NCBI RefSeq assembly: GCF_012570145.1
Contig: NZ_CP046207.1
Coordinates: 1 to 6,377 of the forward strand
Length of the DNA stretch: 6,377 nucleotides
Direction of reading: 5' to 3'
DNA from: Enterobacteriaceae endosymbiont of Donacia provostii
GTDB lineage: Bacteria; Pseudomonadota; Gammaproteobacteria; Enterobacterales; Enterobacteriaceae
The notes below the pieces were generated by a model, which saw nothing but the letters and a program-made list of their open reading frames with translations, made no database searches and was not told the DNA's origin. Each line of letters begins with the position of its first letter. The first letter of the stretch is position 1. Below are positions 1 through 6,377 of the stretch, piece after piece. The position numbers and the translations under genes were made by a program.

Positions 1-87
1 ATGAAAAAAAAAATCTACTACATCTTTAAAGAGATAAAAAAGATAATCTTATTTTATGTAATTATTAATCTGTTAGCTACACAAGCT
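1..87 (+). other. Predicted Sec signal peptide of the adhesin (cleavage after TQA, residue 29)
   Basis: MKKKIYYIFKEIKK (basic n-region), IILFYVIINLLA (hydrophobic core), then T-Q-A / I, a small-x-small cleavage motif. Judged by eye only. Confidence 0.55.
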
Positions 88-2829
88 ATCTATACTAAAA
101 CAATAATTAAGAATAAAATTATAAAAAAAGAAAAACAAAATGTTAACTTCTATGTGAACAAAAATAGAATTAATAATCTTAGAAAAGAAATTTATCTAAA
201 TGTATTAGAAAATCAATATAAATCATTCTTAATATTAATTAGAAAAAAATTAGAATCTAAAAATAATAAAAATACAAATATTTTGATAAATGAAGAAACC
301 AATAATGTTTTGCAAAACTTGTTTTTTAAAAAATCTTTAGAAGAAGATGAAATAAAATGGAGTAATATAAAGAAAAATTATCATAGTAATTATTCAGGAA
401 GATCAAGTTATATTTCAGACATATATAAAACAAATATACAAAGTAATGATGATTCTGAGAATAATATTTTTAATTTATTTTTTTTAGCGAAAAAAAAATT
501 CTCTAATAGAGAAGTATTTATAGAAAATATAAAGTCTAACATTTTAAATAGATTCAATTTAAAACTTAATAACATAGTTAAATTAACTATGTATAGGATA
601 TTTGAAAAATTTCAGTTAAATGGAAAATCTTTAGTTAAGATAAATTTAAATGATAATTTGAATCTGAATAATTCAGAACTAGATTTATTATTTCCTTTTA
701 TAGAAAAGGAAGATTATATTCTTTTTATACAAAATAGTATACATAGAACAGACAATAGAAATCAAAATAACTTAGGTTTTGGATTGAGAAAACTATCATT
801 AGACAATAAGTACTTATTAGGAATAAATAGTTTTTTAGACTATGATATATCTTTAGATAATACAAGAGTTAGTTTAGGTTTAGAATTATGGGGTGAGTTT
901 TTTAAAATTAGTGCTAATACATATTATGGATTAAGTAGATGGTGGCATCAAAATAAAAGTTTTTTATATACGGAAAAAAATAATAATTTATATGATAATA
1001 TAAATGATGATGAATTTTTTTCAAAACCTGCTGCAGGATGGGATATTAATGCAGAAGGGTATTTTTTAAAGTTACCAGAAATATTATTTAAATTAAGTTA
1101 TACAAAATATTATGGAAACATAGGATTTAAACAAAGTGATTTTTTAGAAAAACATGAAAAATTATTTTCTCCTTCAATTTATTCATTTAGTATTAAATAC
1201 ACTCCTATTCCTGTTTTATCTTTTGTTATAGAAAAAATAAAAACTAATTATGGTAAAGATAATATTCAATTTGGAGGGTATTTAAATCTAAAATTAAATT
1301 CATCTTTTAGTGATCAAATACATAATAAAGTACATAATATATTTTCATCATCTTATGATAATAGATATGATTTTGTGAAAAGAGATAATAATATTGTTTT
1401 AAAATATAGAAAAAAATTTTTGATTAAATTATCAACAAAAAAAGAAATTTCAGGATATCCTAAAAGTGAACATTCTTTAGGACTAATAATTAATTCTGTA
1501 AACAAAAATATTAATATAAGTTTTCATAGTCAAGATAGTTTTTTTAGAAATGGAGGTTCTATGAAAATTCTTAATGGTGACTACATAATTAAATTACCTA
1601 GTTATGATTTTAAAAAAACACAAAATAATTCTTATAAAGTTAAAGTAATAGCTTATGATGCATTAAGTAACCGTAATGATATTTCTTATATCAAAATTAA
1701 TGTTATTTATCCATTAATAGATAAAAATAATTCTAATTTTAGTATTTACCCTAATTATATATTAATAAATTCCGAAGAGGCAAAAGTTACTTTTGATGCT
1801 AGAGATGTAAATAACGAACCCTTAATAAATATAAAAAATATTAGTTTTGTAGTTGAAAATGGTAATTTTCCTCGTCTTTATAATATAAAAATTAGTAAAG
1901 TACATGAAAATCCTAAAGGAACTTATACTGCAATTCTTAAAAGTTTAACTCCTGGAACAGCTTTAATAAGAGTAAAGATTAATGATGTTTGTAATAAGGA
2001 AATTGGTGCAAAAATTCATGTTACTAATGCATATACAGATAATATGCAAGTTGTAACTACTCCTTCTAATTTATTGTTGAAGGTAAATGAATCTTTTCAT
2101 TTTCTGATAAAAGTTTTTGATAAACATGGTAAGGGTATACCTTCTTCTGAAGTTAAAATAACTAAAGTAATAGCTATGGATCGAGCAGGATATGTTAGAG
2201 AAGATAATGGAGATTATCATTTTGATGATTTAACTAATAATACATCTTATGATGGTAATCATTTTATATCTTATACAAATAAAGATGGGGAATTAAAAGT
2301 TAAAGTTTCTGATCCTCATGGTATTGGAGTACGTACTTTTTTTAAAATTAGTGCAGACGATTGTGTTAGTAAAGAAATTTCTGTAGTTTTTTCTGTTCCT
2401 ACTAGTCCTAAAAGTGTATATGCTAAAATGTATGGTCATATGCCAGATTTTATATCTGTAAATAATTTGAAATTTTATAGACCTACATTATCTACTGAAC
2501 GTACAGGAGATCAAGTAAATCATTATTTAAATGAAGATTGGGCAAAATTTACTTGGTATAATGCTGAAGAATTTTGTAAATCAAGAAATTTAAGATTACC
2601 TACTAAAGAAGAACTATTAGATTTCTATCATATCCATTCAGGAAATGATTTATTAAGTAATTATGGGTGGCCTATAGTTGATAGATTTAATAGTGCTTGG
2701 AGTTCTTCTGCTATAAGAAATATGTATTTTCATGATCCTTTACATTTTTATGTTGATTTTTTAAATGATAAAATGGATAAAGAAATTGTTAGTGATGCCT
2801 TAGTTGTTTTTTGTGTTCAAGATAGTTAA
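1..2829 (+). CDS. Intimin/invasin-family inverse autotransporter adhesin (942 aa): signal peptide, N/K-rich low-complexity linker, inverse-autotransporter beta-barrel, about 3 bacterial Ig-like domains, C-terminal C-type-lectin-like domain
   Basis: Uninterrupted 942-codon ORF starting at the ATG at position 1. Residues ~258-470 (LGFGLRKL...LLGINSFLDYDISLDNTRVSLGLELWGEFFKISANTYYGLSRWW...KPAAGWDINAEGYFLKLPEILFKLSYTKYYGN...RDNNIVLKYRK; nt ~772-1410) match the conserved intimin/invasin beta-domain pattern as I recall it (NxFfDyd..R.slG.E.w.d.l.lsaN.Y..lS.W...ERpA.GfDi.a.gyLP..P.L..kl.y..YyG). Residues ~472-797 show Big-domain-like strand patterning (YKVKVIAYDALSNRNDISYIKINV; GTYTAILKSLTPGTALIRVKIND; TNKDGELKVKVSDPHG). 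Residues ~800-942 (nt 2398-2826) align with the intimin D3 / invasin D5 lectin-like domain: FTWYNAEEFCKSRNLRLPTKEELLDFY against intimin VTYNDAVNTCKNFGGKLPSSQNELENVF, and C-terminal VVFCVQDS against AYATCVK. No LysM-like segment is visible. Confidence 0.85.
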   Translation: MKKKIYYIFKEIKKIILFYVIINLLATQAIYTKTIIKNKIIKKEKQNVNFYVNKNRINNLRKEIYLNVLENQYKSFLILIRKKLESKNNKNTNILINEETNNVLQNLFFKKSLEEDEIKWSNIKKNYHSNYSGRSSYISDIYKTNIQSNDDSENNIFNLFFLAKKKFSNREVFIENIKSNILNRFNLKLNNIVKLTMYRIFEKFQLNGKSLVKINLNDNLNLNNSELDLLFPFIEKEDYILFIQNSIHRTDNRNQNNLGFGLRKLSLDNKYLLGINSFLDYDISLDNTRVSLGLELWGEFFKISANTYYGLSRWWHQNKSFLYTEKNNNLYDNINDDEFFSKPAAGWDINAEGYFLKLPEILFKLSYTKYYGNIGFKQSDFLEKHEKLFSPSIYSFSIKYTPIPVLSFVIEKIKTNYGKDNIQFGGYLNLKLNSSFSDQIHNKVHNIFSSSYDNRYDFVKRDNNIVLKYRKKFLIKLSTKKEISGYPKSEHSLGLIINSVNKNINISFHSQDSFFRNGGSMKILNGDYIIKLPSYDFKKTQNNSYKVKVIAYDALSNRNDISYIKINVIYPLIDKNNSNFSIYPNYILINSEEAKVTFDARDVNNEPLINIKNISFVVENGNFPRLYNIKISKVHENPKGTYTAILKSLTPGTALIRVKINDVCNKEIGAKIHVTNAYTDNMQVVTTPSNLLLKVNESFHFLIKVFDKHGKGIPSSEVKITKVIAMDRAGYVREDNGDYHFDDLTNNTSYDGNHFISYTNKDGELKVKVSDPHGIGVRTFFKISADDCVSKEISVVFSVPTSPKSVYAKMYGHMPDFISVNNLKFYRPTLSTERTGDQVNHYLNEDWAKFTWYNAEEFCKSRNLRLPTKEELLDFYHIHSGNDLLSNYGWPIVDRFNSAWSSSAIRNMYFHDPLHFYVDFLNDKMDKEIVSDALVVFCVQDS

Positions 2830-2918: not shown

Positions 2919-3011
2919 ATGAATAATTTATTTTATAGGCATGTTAAAAATATTTTTTTTAATAGTATATTTATAATTACAGTTTTATTTTTTCATACAC
3001 ATGTATATGCA
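2919..3011 (+). other. Predicted Sec signal peptide of the polygalacturonase (cleavage after VYA, residue 31)
   Basis: MNNLFYRHVKN (basic n-region), IFFNSIFIITVLFF (hydrophobic core), then H-V-Y-A / QDT. Similarity to mature PehA starts shortly downstream. Judged by eye only. Confidence 0.6.
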
Positions 3012-4199
3012 CAAGATACACGTGCTGTTCATGAACCAGTAATACCTAAAGTATGTAAAATATTAATAGCAGATAATAAAAAAGATTTTACTAATGAAAT
3101 TAATAATGCTATTGTAGGTTGTGCTAAACAACATAAGATAATTAGCTTATTACCTTCCAGTAAAGGAGATAATTATTTTTTTTCAGGACCTATTATTATT
3201 CCATCTTTTGGTGGAATTTTAATTAATAAGGGAGTTATACTTTCAGCAATTAATGATCCTAACTTATATGATAAGGGTAATCAAATATGTGGAGAGTTAG
3301 ATAATATAGGTAAAGGATGTAATCCCTTTATAACTTTAAAAGGGGAAAATAGTGGTTTATATGGAGAAGGATATATTGACGGTCAAGGGGGTAGTATATT
3401 AAAAAATAAGAAATATACTTGGTGGCAATTAGCTACAGAAGCAAAAATTAAACATAAAAAACAAAATAATCCTCATTTAATTGATATTAAGTCAGGAAAA
3501 AATATATCTATATACAAATTACATTTAATAAATTCTCCCAATTTTCATATTGTACCCTATAATACAAATGGTTTAACTATTTGGGGTATAGAAATAAATA
3601 CTCCTTCTGATGCTCGTAATACTGATGGTATAGATCCCTCTTCTTCTCAAAATATAACAATTACACATTCTAATATTAATACAGGAGATGATAATATAGC
3701 TATTAAAGCTGGTAAAAATGGGCCATCTAAACATATATCTATAATAGATAATAATTTTGGTCATGGACATGGTATGTCAATAGGAAGTGAAACAAATAGT
3801 GGAGTTAGTAATGTTCTTGTTAAAAATTTAACATTACAAAATGCAACTAATGGAATTAGAATTAAAAGTGATATTACTAGAGGGGGATTAGTTACTGATA
3901 TTTATTATGAAAATGTTTGTATTTTTAATGTTAAAAATCCTATTATTTTAGATACTCATTATAGTGGCAAAATAAGTGAAGATAAAAATATACCAAGATT
4001 TAAAAATATTTTCTTCCAAAATGTTGAAGTTTTAACTCCTGGAGTATTAAAATTTGATGGATTAGATGAAGATAATATGATTGAGGTTTTTGTAAATAAT
4101 CTTCATGTAAGAAGTGGATCTTCATGGGTTAAAAATAATGTTATAATTCATGGTAATATTGATAATATAATCGATATAGATATTTGTAGGAAGTATTAA
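2919..4199 (+). CDS. pehA: Secreted endo-polygalacturonase, glycoside hydrolase family 28 (PehA-like pectinase), 426 aa
   Basis: All four GH28 signature motifs are in frame: NTDG at nt 3618-3629 (N234), GDD at 3684-3692 (G256-D258), GHGMSIGS from 3765, RIK at 3858-3866 (R314). Long collinear similarity to Pectobacterium PehA as recalled: FFSGPIIIPSFGGILINKGVIL / FLSGPLSLPSGVSLLIDKGVTL; CGELDNIGKGCNPFIT / CGVVDKNGKGCDAFIT; GYIDGQGG / GTIDGQGG; WWQLATEAKIKHKKQNNPHLI / WWELAADAKVKKLKQNTPRLI; LINSPNFHIV / LINSPNFHVV; ARNTDGIDP and TGDDNIAIKA are identical. The paired cysteines C46/C68 and C124/C134 are retained. An N-terminal signal peptide is present. Confidence 0.93.
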   Translation: MNNLFYRHVKNIFFNSIFIITVLFFHTHVYAQDTRAVHEPVIPKVCKILIADNKKDFTNEINNAIVGCAKQHKIISLLPSSKGDNYFFSGPIIIPSFGGILINKGVILSAINDPNLYDKGNQICGELDNIGKGCNPFITLKGENSGLYGEGYIDGQGGSILKNKKYTWWQLATEAKIKHKKQNNPHLIDIKSGKNISIYKLHLINSPNFHIVPYNTNGLTIWGIEINTPSDARNTDGIDPSSSQNITITHSNINTGDDNIAIKAGKNGPSKHISIIDNNFGHGHGMSIGSETNSGVSNVLVKNLTLQNATNGIRIKSDITRGGLVTDIYYENVCIFNVKNPIILDTHYSGKISEDKNIPRFKNIFFQNVEVLTPGVLKFDGLDEDNMIEVFVNNLHVRSGSSWVKNNVIIHGNIDNIIDIDICRKY

Positions 4200-4855
4200 T
4201 TTTTTTTTAAAACTAGAAAAGTAGTTTCATTATTTTTTTTATTTGATATATTTTTTTTTATAATATATAGATTATAAAATCTAGCAGCTATTTCATTTCC
4301 AATAGCTGCTAGATTATCTTGTGAAGAAGAATTTTTAATGAAATTCATAGCAAAAGATGTACTTGAACAGTATTTTATTTCCCATAGTGGATGTTCTTTT
4401 ATAAAAGAACTACATTGTTTTAATGGTTCTTTATGGCTATAGATTTTTTTTATTTTATTTAAAAAAATATTTTTTTTTTTGGTAACTAAACAGTTTTTAA
4501 TGGGTAACTTTATAGTTGTTTTTATTTTTACATAAGTACTATTTTTCTTTAAGTATTTTAATACTTCTTTAATAATTCCTGTATGATTATTTATTATAGG
4601 AACTATAGCTATTTGAATTATACCTGTTTTAATATGTAAAAAAATTTCATTAAAATTATGACAACTTACATTAATAATTTTTTTTTTAAAAAAAAAATTA
4701 TTAATGTAAGTTAATACAGCTAGATGAGAATAACTATATAATGGACCTAAAAAAGCAATGATCTTTTCTTTATTTTGATTATTTAAATTTAAAAAGATAT
4801 TTTTTATATCACTTATATTATTATTAATAATAATATTGTTATTTTTATTTAACAT
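4196..4855 (-). CDS. pheA: Prephenate dehydratase, stand-alone PDT domain (219 aa): a pheA P-protein derivative lacking both the chorismate mutase and the ACT regulatory domains
   Basis: Collinear with the PDT domain of E. coli PheA (about residues 100-285) as recalled: [19 protein letters not shown] / [36 protein letters not shown] / [50 protein letters not shown] / [47 protein letters not shown] / [22 protein letters not shown] / NFTRFVVL. The Thr equivalent to catalytic T278 is kept. Only 31 N/I-rich residues precede the PDT domain, and the stop comes 3 codons after FLVL, where the ACT domain would begin. Confidence 0.87.
   Translation of the reverse strand: [219 protein letters not shown]
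4278..4315. repeat. Perfect 15-bp inverted repeat with an 8-nt loop inside the 3' part of pheA (possible terminator for the convergent pectinase transcript, or a protein-binding palindrome)
   Basis: AATCTAGCAGCTATT (4278-4292), loop TCATTTCC (4293-4300), AATAGCTGCTAGATT (4301-4315). The arms are exact reverse complements. Each arm contains TAGCAGCTA, which matches the iteron core TAGCAGGTA at 8 of 9 positions. The function is not established. Confidence 0.4.
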
Positions 4856-4915
4856 ATGTATTTATATAAATAGTTTTATTTCATCATAACATAAATTATA
4901 TTTAAAGTAAAATTG

Positions 4916-5779
4916 TCATTTTTTAATAACATGTACAATATCATTTTTATCTATCCAACAACTCCATCCTGTAACTAATGAAACTTCAAATAAAGATTTT
5001 TTTAGAATTTGTCTAAACTTCCATAAAATAATAATTTTACTTCCACATAAGTTTTTTAAAGTTATTACCTTATAATATAAGGGGACATTATGAGTACAAT
5101 AAAAACAATGTATCCATTGCGATAATGGTCTTTTTTTTAGCTTTTTTCTTTCTTTTAAAGAAATTATAGTCCAAATAGATTGAGTAAAGAAAGATATTAT
5201 ATTTTTATTTAAAAAAATAACATTTTTTTTAGTTTTATCATTTCTATACCATTCTTGTAACAGATGACCTATATAGAAATAATCTCTATAATTAATTTCT
5301 ATACTACAGATAGATAACCTAATTAAAGATGATTTTAACCATTCATAGTCTTTTTTACCTGTTTTTCTATCTATGGATTTTAAAAAAGAATAAGATGAAA
5401 AAATAACTTTTTCTCCAAATGGTACTTTTGAAAATCGATACAAACATTCTAACCATACATCTAAATCTGATTGATCTAAACTTTCTCCAGTAAATTTTAT
5501 AATAAAATCATTTAGTGATGTTTTTAAGATATTTCTTTCATATCTTCTATATCCTTTTTTTAAAATACCAAATAAAGAACTACGTAAGATAATATTAGGT
5601 ACAGCTCTTCTATTTTTTGAGATATTTGGAAAAAAATTTTGTATATTAATACTTTTTTTTTTTCTCAAACATAGTTCTTTTTTTTTTTCTTTTTTTTTTG
5701 TTTTTTTTTTATTTATAACATTACTTTTATTAATGAGTAAACGAATTCTTTCGTAAAAATTTTTTTTTTTTTTATACAT
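4916..5779 (-). CDS. trfA: TrfA-family plasmid replication initiator (287 aa, about the size of RK2 TrfA-33)
   Basis: Collinear with RK2 TrfA as recalled: RRAVPNIILRSSLFG / MRAMPNDTARSALFT; IKFTGESLDQSDLDVWLECLYRFSKVPFGEKVIFSSYSFLKSI / ITYTGVELRADDDELVWQQVLEYAKRTPIGEPITFTFYELCQDL; LIRLSICSIEI / LSRLQATAMGF; LKNLCGS / FRLMCGS; C-terminal LVTGWSCWIDKNDIVHVIKK / LVEHAWVNDDLVHCKR. It ends in TGA (plus strand 4916-4918) at the same relative position as RK2 TrfA. An iteron array lies upstream. Confidence 0.88.
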   Translation of the reverse strand: MYKKKKNFYERIRLLINKSNVINKKKTKKKEKKKELCLRKKKSINIQNFFPNISKNRRAVPNIILRSSLFGILKKGYRRYERNILKTSLNDFIIKFTGESLDQSDLDVWLECLYRFSKVPFGEKVIFSSYSFLKSIDRKTGKKDYEWLKSSLIRLSICSIEINYRDYFYIGHLLQEWYRNDKTKKNVIFLNKNIISFFTQSIWTIISLKERKKLKKRPLSQWIHCFYCTHNVPLYYKVITLKNLCGSKIIILWKFRQILKKSLFEVSLVTGWSCWIDKNDIVHVIKK

Positions 5780-6065
5780 ATAAAATATATTGATTTAAAA
5801 TATTCTAATTTCAAATCAAAAAATGGATAATTTTTATAGTATTTTAAATATACTGTAATTTATAGAGTAATACTATTTTTTTTCACTCTCCGTAAAAGTT
5901 TAAAACAATATTATTTTCTACTAAAGCTATATATGAATTAAATAAAAGATTTATTATTAATAAAAACATCCTATAAAAATAATAATTAAGGTTAATTATA
6001 TCTTTTTTTTTTTATATGTCAAGATAATTTAATAAAATTTTTAAAAATCATATTTTATTCTAATT

Positions 6066-6216
6066 CAGAATAGCAGGGTAGTAAAACTCGGGATAGCAGG
6101 TAGTAAAACTCGGGATAGCAGGTAGTAAAACTCGGGATAGCAGGTAGTAACTCGGGATAGCAGGTAGTAAAACTCGGGATAGCAGGTAGTAAAACTCGGG
6201 ATAGCAGGTAGTAAAA
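6066..6216. repeat. Iteron array (putative TrfA binding sites, core of oriV): 5 identical 22-bp units, one 20-bp variant and one degenerate leading copy
   Basis: CTCGGGATAGCAGGTAGTAAAA occurs at 6087-6108, 6109-6130, 6151-6172, 6173-6194 and 6195-6216. A 20-bp variant lacking two A is at 6131-6150. A degenerate copy, CAGAATAGCAGGGTAGTAAAA, is at 6066-6086. Units abut head-to-tail with no spacers. Each unit has 10 G/C in 22 nt, far above the surrounding DNA. The 22-bp periodicity equals that of RK2 oriV iterons (17-mers on a 22-bp repeat). The array lies about 290 bp from the trfA start. Confidence 0.88.
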
Positions 6217-6377
6217 AGGTGAAGAAAAATCATAAACAAAAAAAATTTATATAATCCCTTTATAATCATTTTTTTTTAAAAAAAAAAATTGAATATTAAA
6301 ACAAACTAATGTAATATAAGAAAAGTATATGAAGTAAATAGAAAATTGTTTATTATTATTTTAAATAAAATTAAGTA
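6217..6377. other. A+T-rich tract next to the iterons: candidate DNA unwinding element, and across the presumed circular junction the promoter region of the adhesin gene
   Basis: Almost pure A/T, with no ORF. Contains a T9A11 tract at 6269-6288. Its position directly beside the iterons matches the usual layout of iteron origins. There is no experimental or motif-level proof, and I could not identify repeated 13-mers. Confidence 0.35.

Follow-up and report, generated by a model that had tools for sequence, protein, structure and literature searches.

The 6,377-bp window analyzed here is the entire plasmid of the Donacia provosti symbiont, which belongs to a set of 26 symbionts of reed beetles (Donaciinae) that Reis et al. 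described in 2020 (PMC7289800). The plasmid carries four genes, encoding an adhesin, a GH28 polygalacturonase (PG), a prephenate dehydratase (PDT), and the replication initiator TrfA, together with a set of iterons. Here, we report an analysis of the PDT gene (positions 4196 to 4855, reverse strand; GenBank locus tag GJT93_02245), a pheA derivative whose 219-amino-acid (aa) product consists of the PDT domain without the chorismate mutase (CM) and ACT domains. An earlier note on this stretch had placed the open reading frame (ORF) at these positions, with its stop 3 codons past a conserved motif and a 60-bp gap to trfA on the same strand, and all of its descriptive statements hold.

The translated ORF is 100% identical to NCBI entry GJT93_02245, which is labeled "hypothetical protein" in GenBank. 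Pfam PDT (PF00800) matched residues 33 to 218 over profile positions 1 to 178 of 181 (E value, 1.2e-46; 159.2 bits versus a gathering cutoff of 25.2), and no Pfam match to CM_2 or ACT was found in the 219-aa protein, even at an E value of ≤1. The top NCBIfam model was the bifunctional P-protein PRK10622 (NF007910 equivalog), matched at positions 95 to 285 of 386 only (150 bits versus a cutoff of 577). With hhalign, an alignment of 16 reed-beetle orthologues was compared with a profile of 17 P-proteins (mostly from free-living Enterobacterales, plus a few from symbionts), and residues 29 to 218 aligned with Escherichia coli PheA residues 102 to 285 (E value, 2e-55); the experimentally defined PDT domain of E. 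coli PheA, by the limits quoted in PMC8192741, spans residues 101 to 285. The best model and this alignment both agree with the earlier proposal that the protein derives from an enterobacterial P-protein of which only PDT remains. An AlphaFold 2 (AF2) model of the protein (predicted local distance difference test score, 90.9; predicted template modeling [TM] score, 0.86) was searched with Foldseek, and the best matches were the PDT crystal structures 6vh5, 2qmx, 3mwb, and 2qmw (E values, 1e-11 to 1e-16; TM score on the query, ∼0.7), with an overlap of ∼188 columns that covers the catalytic lobe pair only. The predicted structure thus has the two-lobed, periplasmic-binding-protein-like catalytic fold, and Pfam, hhalign, AF2, and Foldseek together place the catalytic domain at residues 33 to 218 (positions 4202 to 4759, reverse strand), equivalent to about residues 106 to 285 of E. 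coli PheA.

The protein ends in TTFLVLKKN, with the stop 3 codons past FLVL and 6 residues past F213. The stop codons of the PDT gene (reverse strand) and the PG gene (forward strand) overlap in the sequence TTAA at positions 4196 to 4199, which leaves no space downstream for a remnant of ACT. Six frames of ten reed-beetle plasmids (this one and nine related plasmids) were searched with tblastn for CM or ACT remnants, with domains taken from E. coli and from two AT-rich symbionts, and only chance matches were obtained (three CM domains, E values of >0.5 only; ACT, best E value of 0.038 at an unrelated position; PDT control, E values of 1e-26 to 1e-42). Neither the domain scan (Pfam, NCBIfam, and hhalign) nor tblastn on these plasmids thus found the two domains that the earlier note had reported missing. 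Reis et al. call the gene "bifunctional chorismate mutase/prephenate dehydratase" (PMC7289800), a label contradicted by the domain content predicted from the sequence; the neutral RefSeq label, "prephenate dehydratase domain-containing protein," is closer to the truth.

Two further features of the PDT ORF are recorded here. The 4-nt stop overlap is likewise found in the plasmids of the D. proxima, D. cincticornis, and D. crassipes symbionts and in a fourth related plasmid (L090); without a terminator between the convergent PDT and PG genes, their transcripts must collide or overlap. Long homopolymers also lie within coding sequence: the PDT gene has T10A10 (encoding FFFKKK) at positions 4680 to 4699, and trfA has, close to its 5′ end, a 37-nt stretch of nearly pure A (lysine rich) at positions 5678 to 5714. 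In reduced genomes, runs of this kind are liable to slippage during transcription or replication; both ORFs are intact nonetheless.

Residues 1 to 32 (positions 4760 to 4855, reverse strand) form an N-terminal extension rich in N, I, and K, delimited by hhalign, the 16-orthologue alignment, and AF2. Its length differs among the 16 orthologues (about 28 to 46 aa), a loose "IIIN-N-I--F" core is found in Donacia symbionts, and AF2 predicts, with moderate confidence, a strand at residues 8 to 13 and a helix at residues 14 to 24. A hint from MAFFT and phmmer comparisons with P-proteins of AT-rich symbionts, that the extension could be a relic of CM helix 3, was rejected as a compositional effect. 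In hhalign, the extension matched the CM domain of the mostly free-living P-proteins with a probability of ∼0, equal to that of the reversed control. The earlier description of some 31 N/I-rich residues in place of CM is borne out by the same result, and we treat the extension as apparently unrelated to CM or changed beyond recognition.

The short C terminus is shared by 16 of 16 reed-beetle orthologues (from Plateumaris, Macroplea, a Neohaemonia/Macroplea-like representative, and 12 Donacia symbionts), all of which stop 2 to 8 residues past the FLVL-type motif (5 to 8 past its Phe). This is independent of the neighbor, which is the pectinase gene or, in pectinase-less plasmids, the adhesin gene. 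Because the short tail is common to all 16, the losses of CM and ACT predate the diversification of reed-beetle symbionts. The PDT gene is plasmid borne in all 26 species, and its gene tree matches the genome tree (PMC7289800). By sequence comparison, its nearest full-length relatives are CM-PDT(-ACT) proteins of Enterobacterales and symbionts (37 to 47% identity), and a profile search of genome contigs, seeded with the aligned reed-beetle PDTs, yielded 80 pheA loci, most of them from free-living Enterobacterales and a few from other insect symbionts. Within the clade of D. crassipes, the PDT gene had dN/dS values of 0.31 to 0.61 (NG86) and 0.11 to 0.24 (YN00); NG86 is given beside YN00 because, with such AT bias and divergence, YN00 returned no value (nan) for several of the pairs. 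The gene is under purifying selection (dN/dS, <1).

A PDT without CM depends on prephenate made elsewhere, and the earlier note had looked to a chromosomal tyrA for it. This finds support in published annotation: a TyrA with CM and dehydrogenase functions ("chorismate mutase I / cyclohexadienyl dehydrogenase") is encoded beside aroF in 26 of 26 reed-beetle symbiont genomes (supplement of PMC7289800) and is the sole "chorismate mutase" entry in the published chromosomal gene table (PMC7289800). In the 2025 EMBO Reports datasets, TyrA is assigned K14187 in four species, and tyrA directly adjoins bamD in the sRNA annotations. The gene order in E. coli is bamD-raiA-pheL-pheA-tyrA-aroF, and the ancestral pheA slot is therefore empty in these relatives, where bamD and tyrA meet without pheA. 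The remaining Phe pathway is retained in the symbionts, and tyrB is missing from them and present in the beetle genomes (PMC7289800). The CM-less PDT homologue GqqA complements an E. coli pheA deletion (PMC8192741), and TyrA-derived prephenate can therefore feed a separate dehydratase.

From this evidence, the gene probably encodes a functional, Phe-insensitive, monofunctional PDT, made up of the catalytic domain alone and using prephenate from the chromosomal TyrA. An enterobacterial CM-PDT-ACT P-protein would have been the ancestor; pheA would have left its chromosomal slot beside tyrA, lost both flanking domains before reed-beetle symbionts diversified, and come to lie on a TrfA/iteron plasmid. 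The CM domain of TyrA would convert chorismate to prephenate, the plasmid enzyme would decarboxylate and dehydrate prephenate to phenylpyruvate, and, since the symbiont is without tyrB, the last transamination would fall to the host or to another aminotransferase. Without ACT, there would be no phenylalanine-binding site, so that the step could not be feedback inhibited and output would be set by substrate supply and transcription. Feedback resistance on removal of the regulatory (R) domain is known for E. coli PheA (PMC4719340), and by analogy it would follow here from the loss of ACT, as the earlier note had supposed.

The substitutions in conserved motifs bear on whether such an enzyme would work. 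Column mapping placed the codon for I88, equivalent to E. coli E159 of the PIEN motif (here PIIN), at positions 4592 to 4594 (reverse strand) and T211-T212-F213, equivalent to the TRF motif (here TTF), at positions 4220 to 4228 (reverse strand), so that the complete TRF triad and the PIEN Glu are not present. Within TRF, the catalytic Thr (T211, equivalent to T278) and the Phe are invariant, and Arg279 is replaced by T212; N89, Q147, and S140 correspond to E. coli N160, Q215, and S208, and the E232 position is occupied by Ser (S164). Invariant in 18 of 18 aligned sequences (E. coli numbering) are G110, S116, N160, S208, Q215, C216, T278, and F280. Among reed-beetle symbionts, Glu at the E159 position is found only in Plateumaris symbionts (elsewhere Y, S, or I), and the TRF Arg position is hypervariable (T, F, I, N, H, K, or R). 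In 1998 and 2000, Zhang et al. reportedly found the isolated 101-285 domain active and T278 essential.

These positions were compared across the 50%-identity cluster representatives among the top 150 exhaustive HMMER matches. The TRF Arg was kept in 84 of 112 homologues with an ACT-length tail and in 8 of 27 without one (Fisher P = 2e-5), and Glu159 was kept in 100 of 112 and 13 of 27, respectively (Fisher P = 9e-6), counts that are a lead rather than proof, being phylogenetically nonindependent, skewed to AT-rich symbionts, and possibly including fragments. Several ACT-bearing homologues with an intact ESRP motif are likewise without the TRF Arg. In the engineering of E. coli PheA, the R domain is removed as the standard route to feedback resistance, and E159A/E232A are then added to restore substrate affinity (PMC4719340). 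The earlier note had raised PIIN and TTF as caveats; both substitutions are real, and their weight as objections is lowered by the E159A precedent and the homologue counts. The PIIN caveat turns into mild support, since substitution of E159 is the engineers' own affinity fix for ACT-less PheA, and the TTF caveat is weakened, since the TRF Arg is replaced in 19 of 27 ACT-less and 28 of 112 ACT-bearing homologues. E. coli PheA binds its substrate less well once ACT is deleted, and replacement of E159 (and E232) would probably make up for such a loss in the plasmid enzyme.

The same substitutions could instead mark a decaying or repurposed relic, in which changes at E159, R279, E232, and G113 abolish or change activity and Phe comes from the host diet or by another route. 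We regard this as improbable. Replacement of the TRF Arg and the PIEN Glu, Tyr at G113, relatively relaxed constraint on the gene, the "hypothetical protein" label, and the capacity of PDT homologues to gain other activities, such as the acylase activity of GqqA (PMC8192741), would all suit a relic, but the ORF is intact in 16 of 16 orthologues examined and reported in 26 of 26 species, dN/dS stays below 1, T278, N160, Q215, and S208 do not vary, and the AF2 model is confident and PDT-like. Some of the ACT-length homologues in which R279 is replaced still have the ESRP motif, E159A raises affinity instead of destroying the enzyme (PMC4719340), and the rest of the Phe pathway is retained (PMC7289800).

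Transcription data come from relatives of the D. provosti symbiont. In published transcriptome sequencing (RNA-seq) of the Macroplea mutica symbiont, the PDT gene had a baseMean of 125, compared with 6694 for trfA and 5513 for PG, i.e., ∼50-fold fewer PDT than trfA reads. The PDT gene is transcribed and is larval upregulated in 2 of 4 species: published calls list "pheA" as larval upregulated in the D. marginata and D. versicolorea symbionts and trfA in the D. marginata and M. mutica symbionts, so that life-stage regulation of the two genes is discordant in 2 of 4 species. A promoter scan of the 60-bp trfA-PDT spacer (positions 4856 to 4915, reverse strand) found TTTACT, 17 nt, and TG-n-TATGAT (positions 4911 to 4883), a candidate promoter of the extended −10 type, and in 7 of 8 species the spacer, otherwise poorly conserved, is best kept in a TATGTTATAAT-like block; this −10-like box may serve as the PDT promoter. 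In the D. crassipes symbiont plasmid (L086:1483-1640), a tandem duplication of ∼77 bp covers the trfA 3′ end together with the beginning of the spacer; it was not found in the other aligned plasmids.

The earlier note had also proposed that the gene is cotranscribed with trfA and overexpressed through plasmid copy number, as on the Buchnera pTrp and pLeu plasmids. Such an arrangement would suit a gene that lies on the same strand, 60 bp downstream of trfA, with no terminator-like hairpin found between the two in a spacer scan, and plasmid copy number has been named as a general route of regulation in symbionts (EMBO Reports paper), but it appears quite unlikely. The RNA-seq gap between PDT and its neighbors and the differing sets of larval-upregulated species argue against simple cotranscription with trfA and against plasmid-driven overexpression, as does the conserved −10-like box in the spacer. 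Both proposals are unsupported, as is a role in host cuticle tanning through Phe/Tyr overproduction, which the earlier note had also suggested; Reis et al. favor amino acid supply to sap-feeding larvae (PMC7289800). Taken as a whole, the observation in the earlier note is confirmed, and its interpretation is partly supported.

Several points weigh against a functional, Phe-insensitive PDT. R279 of the "TRF triad" is described as critical for catalysis (PMC13217925) and is replaced here, as is G113 (by Tyr). The dN/dS of the PDT gene is the highest of the four plasmid genes, ∼2-fold that of the trfA, pectinase, and adhesin genes, and the D. provosti copy is the most divergent Donacia copy from the E. 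coli PDT; of the other copies, that of Macroplea alone is weaker. Expression of the gene in the M. mutica symbiont is low, as noted above. The intact CM domain of D. provosti TyrA is taken from published annotation. In plant arogenate dehydratases, the ACT domain affects prephenate use (PMC13217925), and its removal might shift substrate preference; no enzyme assay of a natural ACT-less PDT was found in a literature search.

The rest of the plasmid is as follows. The adhesin gene (positions 1 to 2829, forward strand) encodes an inverse-autotransporter (intimin/invasin-like) protein of 942 aa with IAT_beta, Invasin_D3, BIg21, and C-terminal InvE adhesion (InvE_AD) domains (Pfam/NCBIfam). It is an intact ORF on all related plasmids examined, and the symbiont genome measures only ∼0.45 to 0.5 Mb. 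The protein is a candidate host-cell adhesion or entry factor; the symbiont alternates between extra- and intracellular life. The GH28 PG gene (positions 2919 to 4199, forward strand; Pfam Glyco_hydro_28 E value, 1.5e-57) is convergent with the PDT gene. Its region from 3175 to 4064 has 71 to 75% DNA identity to polygalacturonase regions on ten plasmids of "Candidatus Stammera capleta," the tortoise-beetle symbiont, which agrees with the published kinship of both pectinases, and the plasmid PG of a relative has been demonstrated to be active (PMC7289800). trfA lies at positions 4916 to 5779 (reverse strand; Pfam TrfA, 35.7 bits versus a cutoff of 22). The iterons (positions 6070 to 6216; 6.7 copies of a 22-bp unit, ATAGCAGGTAGTAAAACTCGGG; Tandem Repeats Finder score, 271) form a putative oriV and are the sole GC-rich patch of the plasmid; a 69-aa ORF at positions 6060 to 6269 is a by-product of this repeat. 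With both a TrfA initiator and direct iterons, the replicon is of the TrfA/iteron (IncP-like) type. Between the iterons and trfA, a perfect 12/12 sigma-70 consensus (TTGACA, 16 nt, TATAAT) at positions 5995 to 6022 (reverse strand) sits ∼215 bp upstream of the trfA start and is likely the trfA promoter; TTGACA is unusual at ∼17% GC.

PDT-only genes also occur in other insect symbionts. In the Blochmannia symbiont of Colobopsis obliquus (CP010049; L091:4001-4603), a 200-aa PDT-only gene lies in the order bamD-PDT-tyrA-aroF, with a full CM_2 domain in TyrA, and the symbiont in sequencing run ERR13948499 (L093:2119-2721) has the same arrangement, likewise with PDT only. The Blochmannia symbiont of C. 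nipponica and Blochmannia vafer have PDT-only versions of 195 to 200 aa, and other Blochmannia have a CM-less PheA of ∼290 aa in which only the PDT Pfam domain was detected. Buchnera genome OZ060412 (L092:3694-4573) carries separate CM (97-aa) and PDT (190-aa) ORFs and no ACT, and annotation lists short PDT-only ORFs (182 aa) for Buchnera of Periphyllus and, for Buchnera of Chaitophorus, a 283-aa protein that combines CM and PDT but has no ACT-length tail. The PDT-only architecture is therefore not unique to this plasmid, and loss of PheA domains is recurrent in insect symbionts. Our literature search, of incomplete coverage, found no description of outright ACT deletion in symbionts.

An alternative to adaptive deregulation is neutral erosion. 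Under it, the enzyme works, CM and ACT were lost only as dispensable in a host-buffered symbiont, with TyrA making CM redundant and no selection for regulation, and the plasmid location is a historical accident, with no Phe or Tyr overproduction implied; the gene would now keep the plasmid indispensable. We hold this to be unlikely, although less so than a relic or amplification. It draws on the view of Reis et al. that the gene is the reason for retention of the plasmid and not an amplification device (PMC7289800), on PDT expression that is low relative to that of neighboring genes, and on the highest dN/dS among the plasmid genes. All listed Blochmannia PheA homologues have the PDT Pfam domain only, and in several of them the ACT-length tail is gone although the gene is still in place on the chromosome, which suits a general erosion of domains; the CM ORF is kept beside the PDT ORF where TyrA is absent (Buchnera). 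Set against this, ACT loss recurs in several independent nutritional symbionts, and the drop in Glu159 retention among ACT-less homologues, at the residue that engineers chose for E159A, looks more directional than random decay; desensitization of Buchnera PheA through regulatory-domain changes had, moreover, already been proposed in 2000 (Jimenez et al., J Bacteriol, as cited in PMC5737371). Regulation may thus have been lost under selection or simply because its loss was tolerated.

More tentatively, and with some doubt on our part, ACT-domain excision from PheA may be a recurrent, convergent adaptation of insect nutritional endosymbionts (Buchnera of the Chaitophorinae type, several Blochmannia, and those of reed beetles), after which Glu159 and the TRF Arg were replaced time and again. 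Both residues would then act in allosteric coupling or in the gating of substrate and not in the chemistry itself, and the design of the industrial feedback-resistant (fbr) PheA(fbr, E159A/E232A) would have been reached several times. The link of ACT loss with E159 and R279 substitutions is a testable side result.

For the D. provosti gene itself, a functional, Phe-insensitive PDT would mean that Phe synthesis in these symbionts depends on the mutase domain of TyrA and runs without an allosteric brake, a clean added example of the loss of metabolic feedback control in obligate symbionts. This is no new kind of system; the enzyme is very well known, this is a naturally occurring version of it, and the finding refines the published annotation. 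The novelty is modest, since the literature already has both the gene and its place on the plasmid, and the truncated design is known in other symbionts.

Compared with known systems, the protein is homologous to the PDT domain of the E. coli P-protein PheA (CM-PDT-ACT), with 35 to 37% identity over about residues 102 to 285 and with T278, F280, N160, Q215, and S208 kept. It differs from E. coli PheA in being without CM (residues 1 to 100) and the ACT/R domain (residues 286 to 386), in the substitutions at E159, E232, R279, and G113, and in its gene being plasmid borne and without the pheL attenuator. Classical Buchnera aphidicola PheA is likewise the PheA of an insect nutritional endosymbiont for which desensitization to Phe has been proposed; there, however, the ACT region is kept but mutated, whereas in reed-beetle symbionts it is deleted outright, and classical Buchnera keeps CM because tyrA is absent, whereas reed-beetle symbionts lost it because TyrA supplies it. 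The PDT genes of Blochmannia, the ERR13948499 symbiont, and OZ060412 resemble the plasmid gene in stopping shortly (5 to 13 residues) past the T-x-F motif. The Blochmannia PDT-only genes, however, lie in the ancestral chromosomal slot, and that of Blochmannia obliquus keeps PIEN and TRF, whereas the reed-beetle gene is plasmid borne and has an N-terminal extension. As with Buchnera pTrp and pLeu, an obligate insect symbiont here has a gene of amino acid biosynthesis on a small plasmid; unlike those plasmids, this one has a TrfA-plus-iteron replicon and only one biosynthetic gene, accompanied by those for a pectinase and an adhesin, with a low transcript level of the biosynthetic gene in a relative. 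The design also resembles that of the engineered PDT 101-285 and PheA(fbr) 1-300 E159A/E232A (PMC4719340; PMC8192741, citing Zhang et al.), in which, by the limits quoted there, the regulatory domain is cut at essentially the same boundary and Glu159 and Glu232 are replaced by nonacidic residues, as they are by I88 and S164 here. Unlike the engineered enzyme, the plasmid protein is natural and ancient, is also without CM, and carries an unrelated 32-residue N-terminal extension. The PDTs of reed-beetle symbionts, Blochmannia, and Buchnera would together form a natural set of regulator-free enzymes, with E159 and R279 substitutions that can be compared with those of engineered industrial feedback-resistant enzymes.

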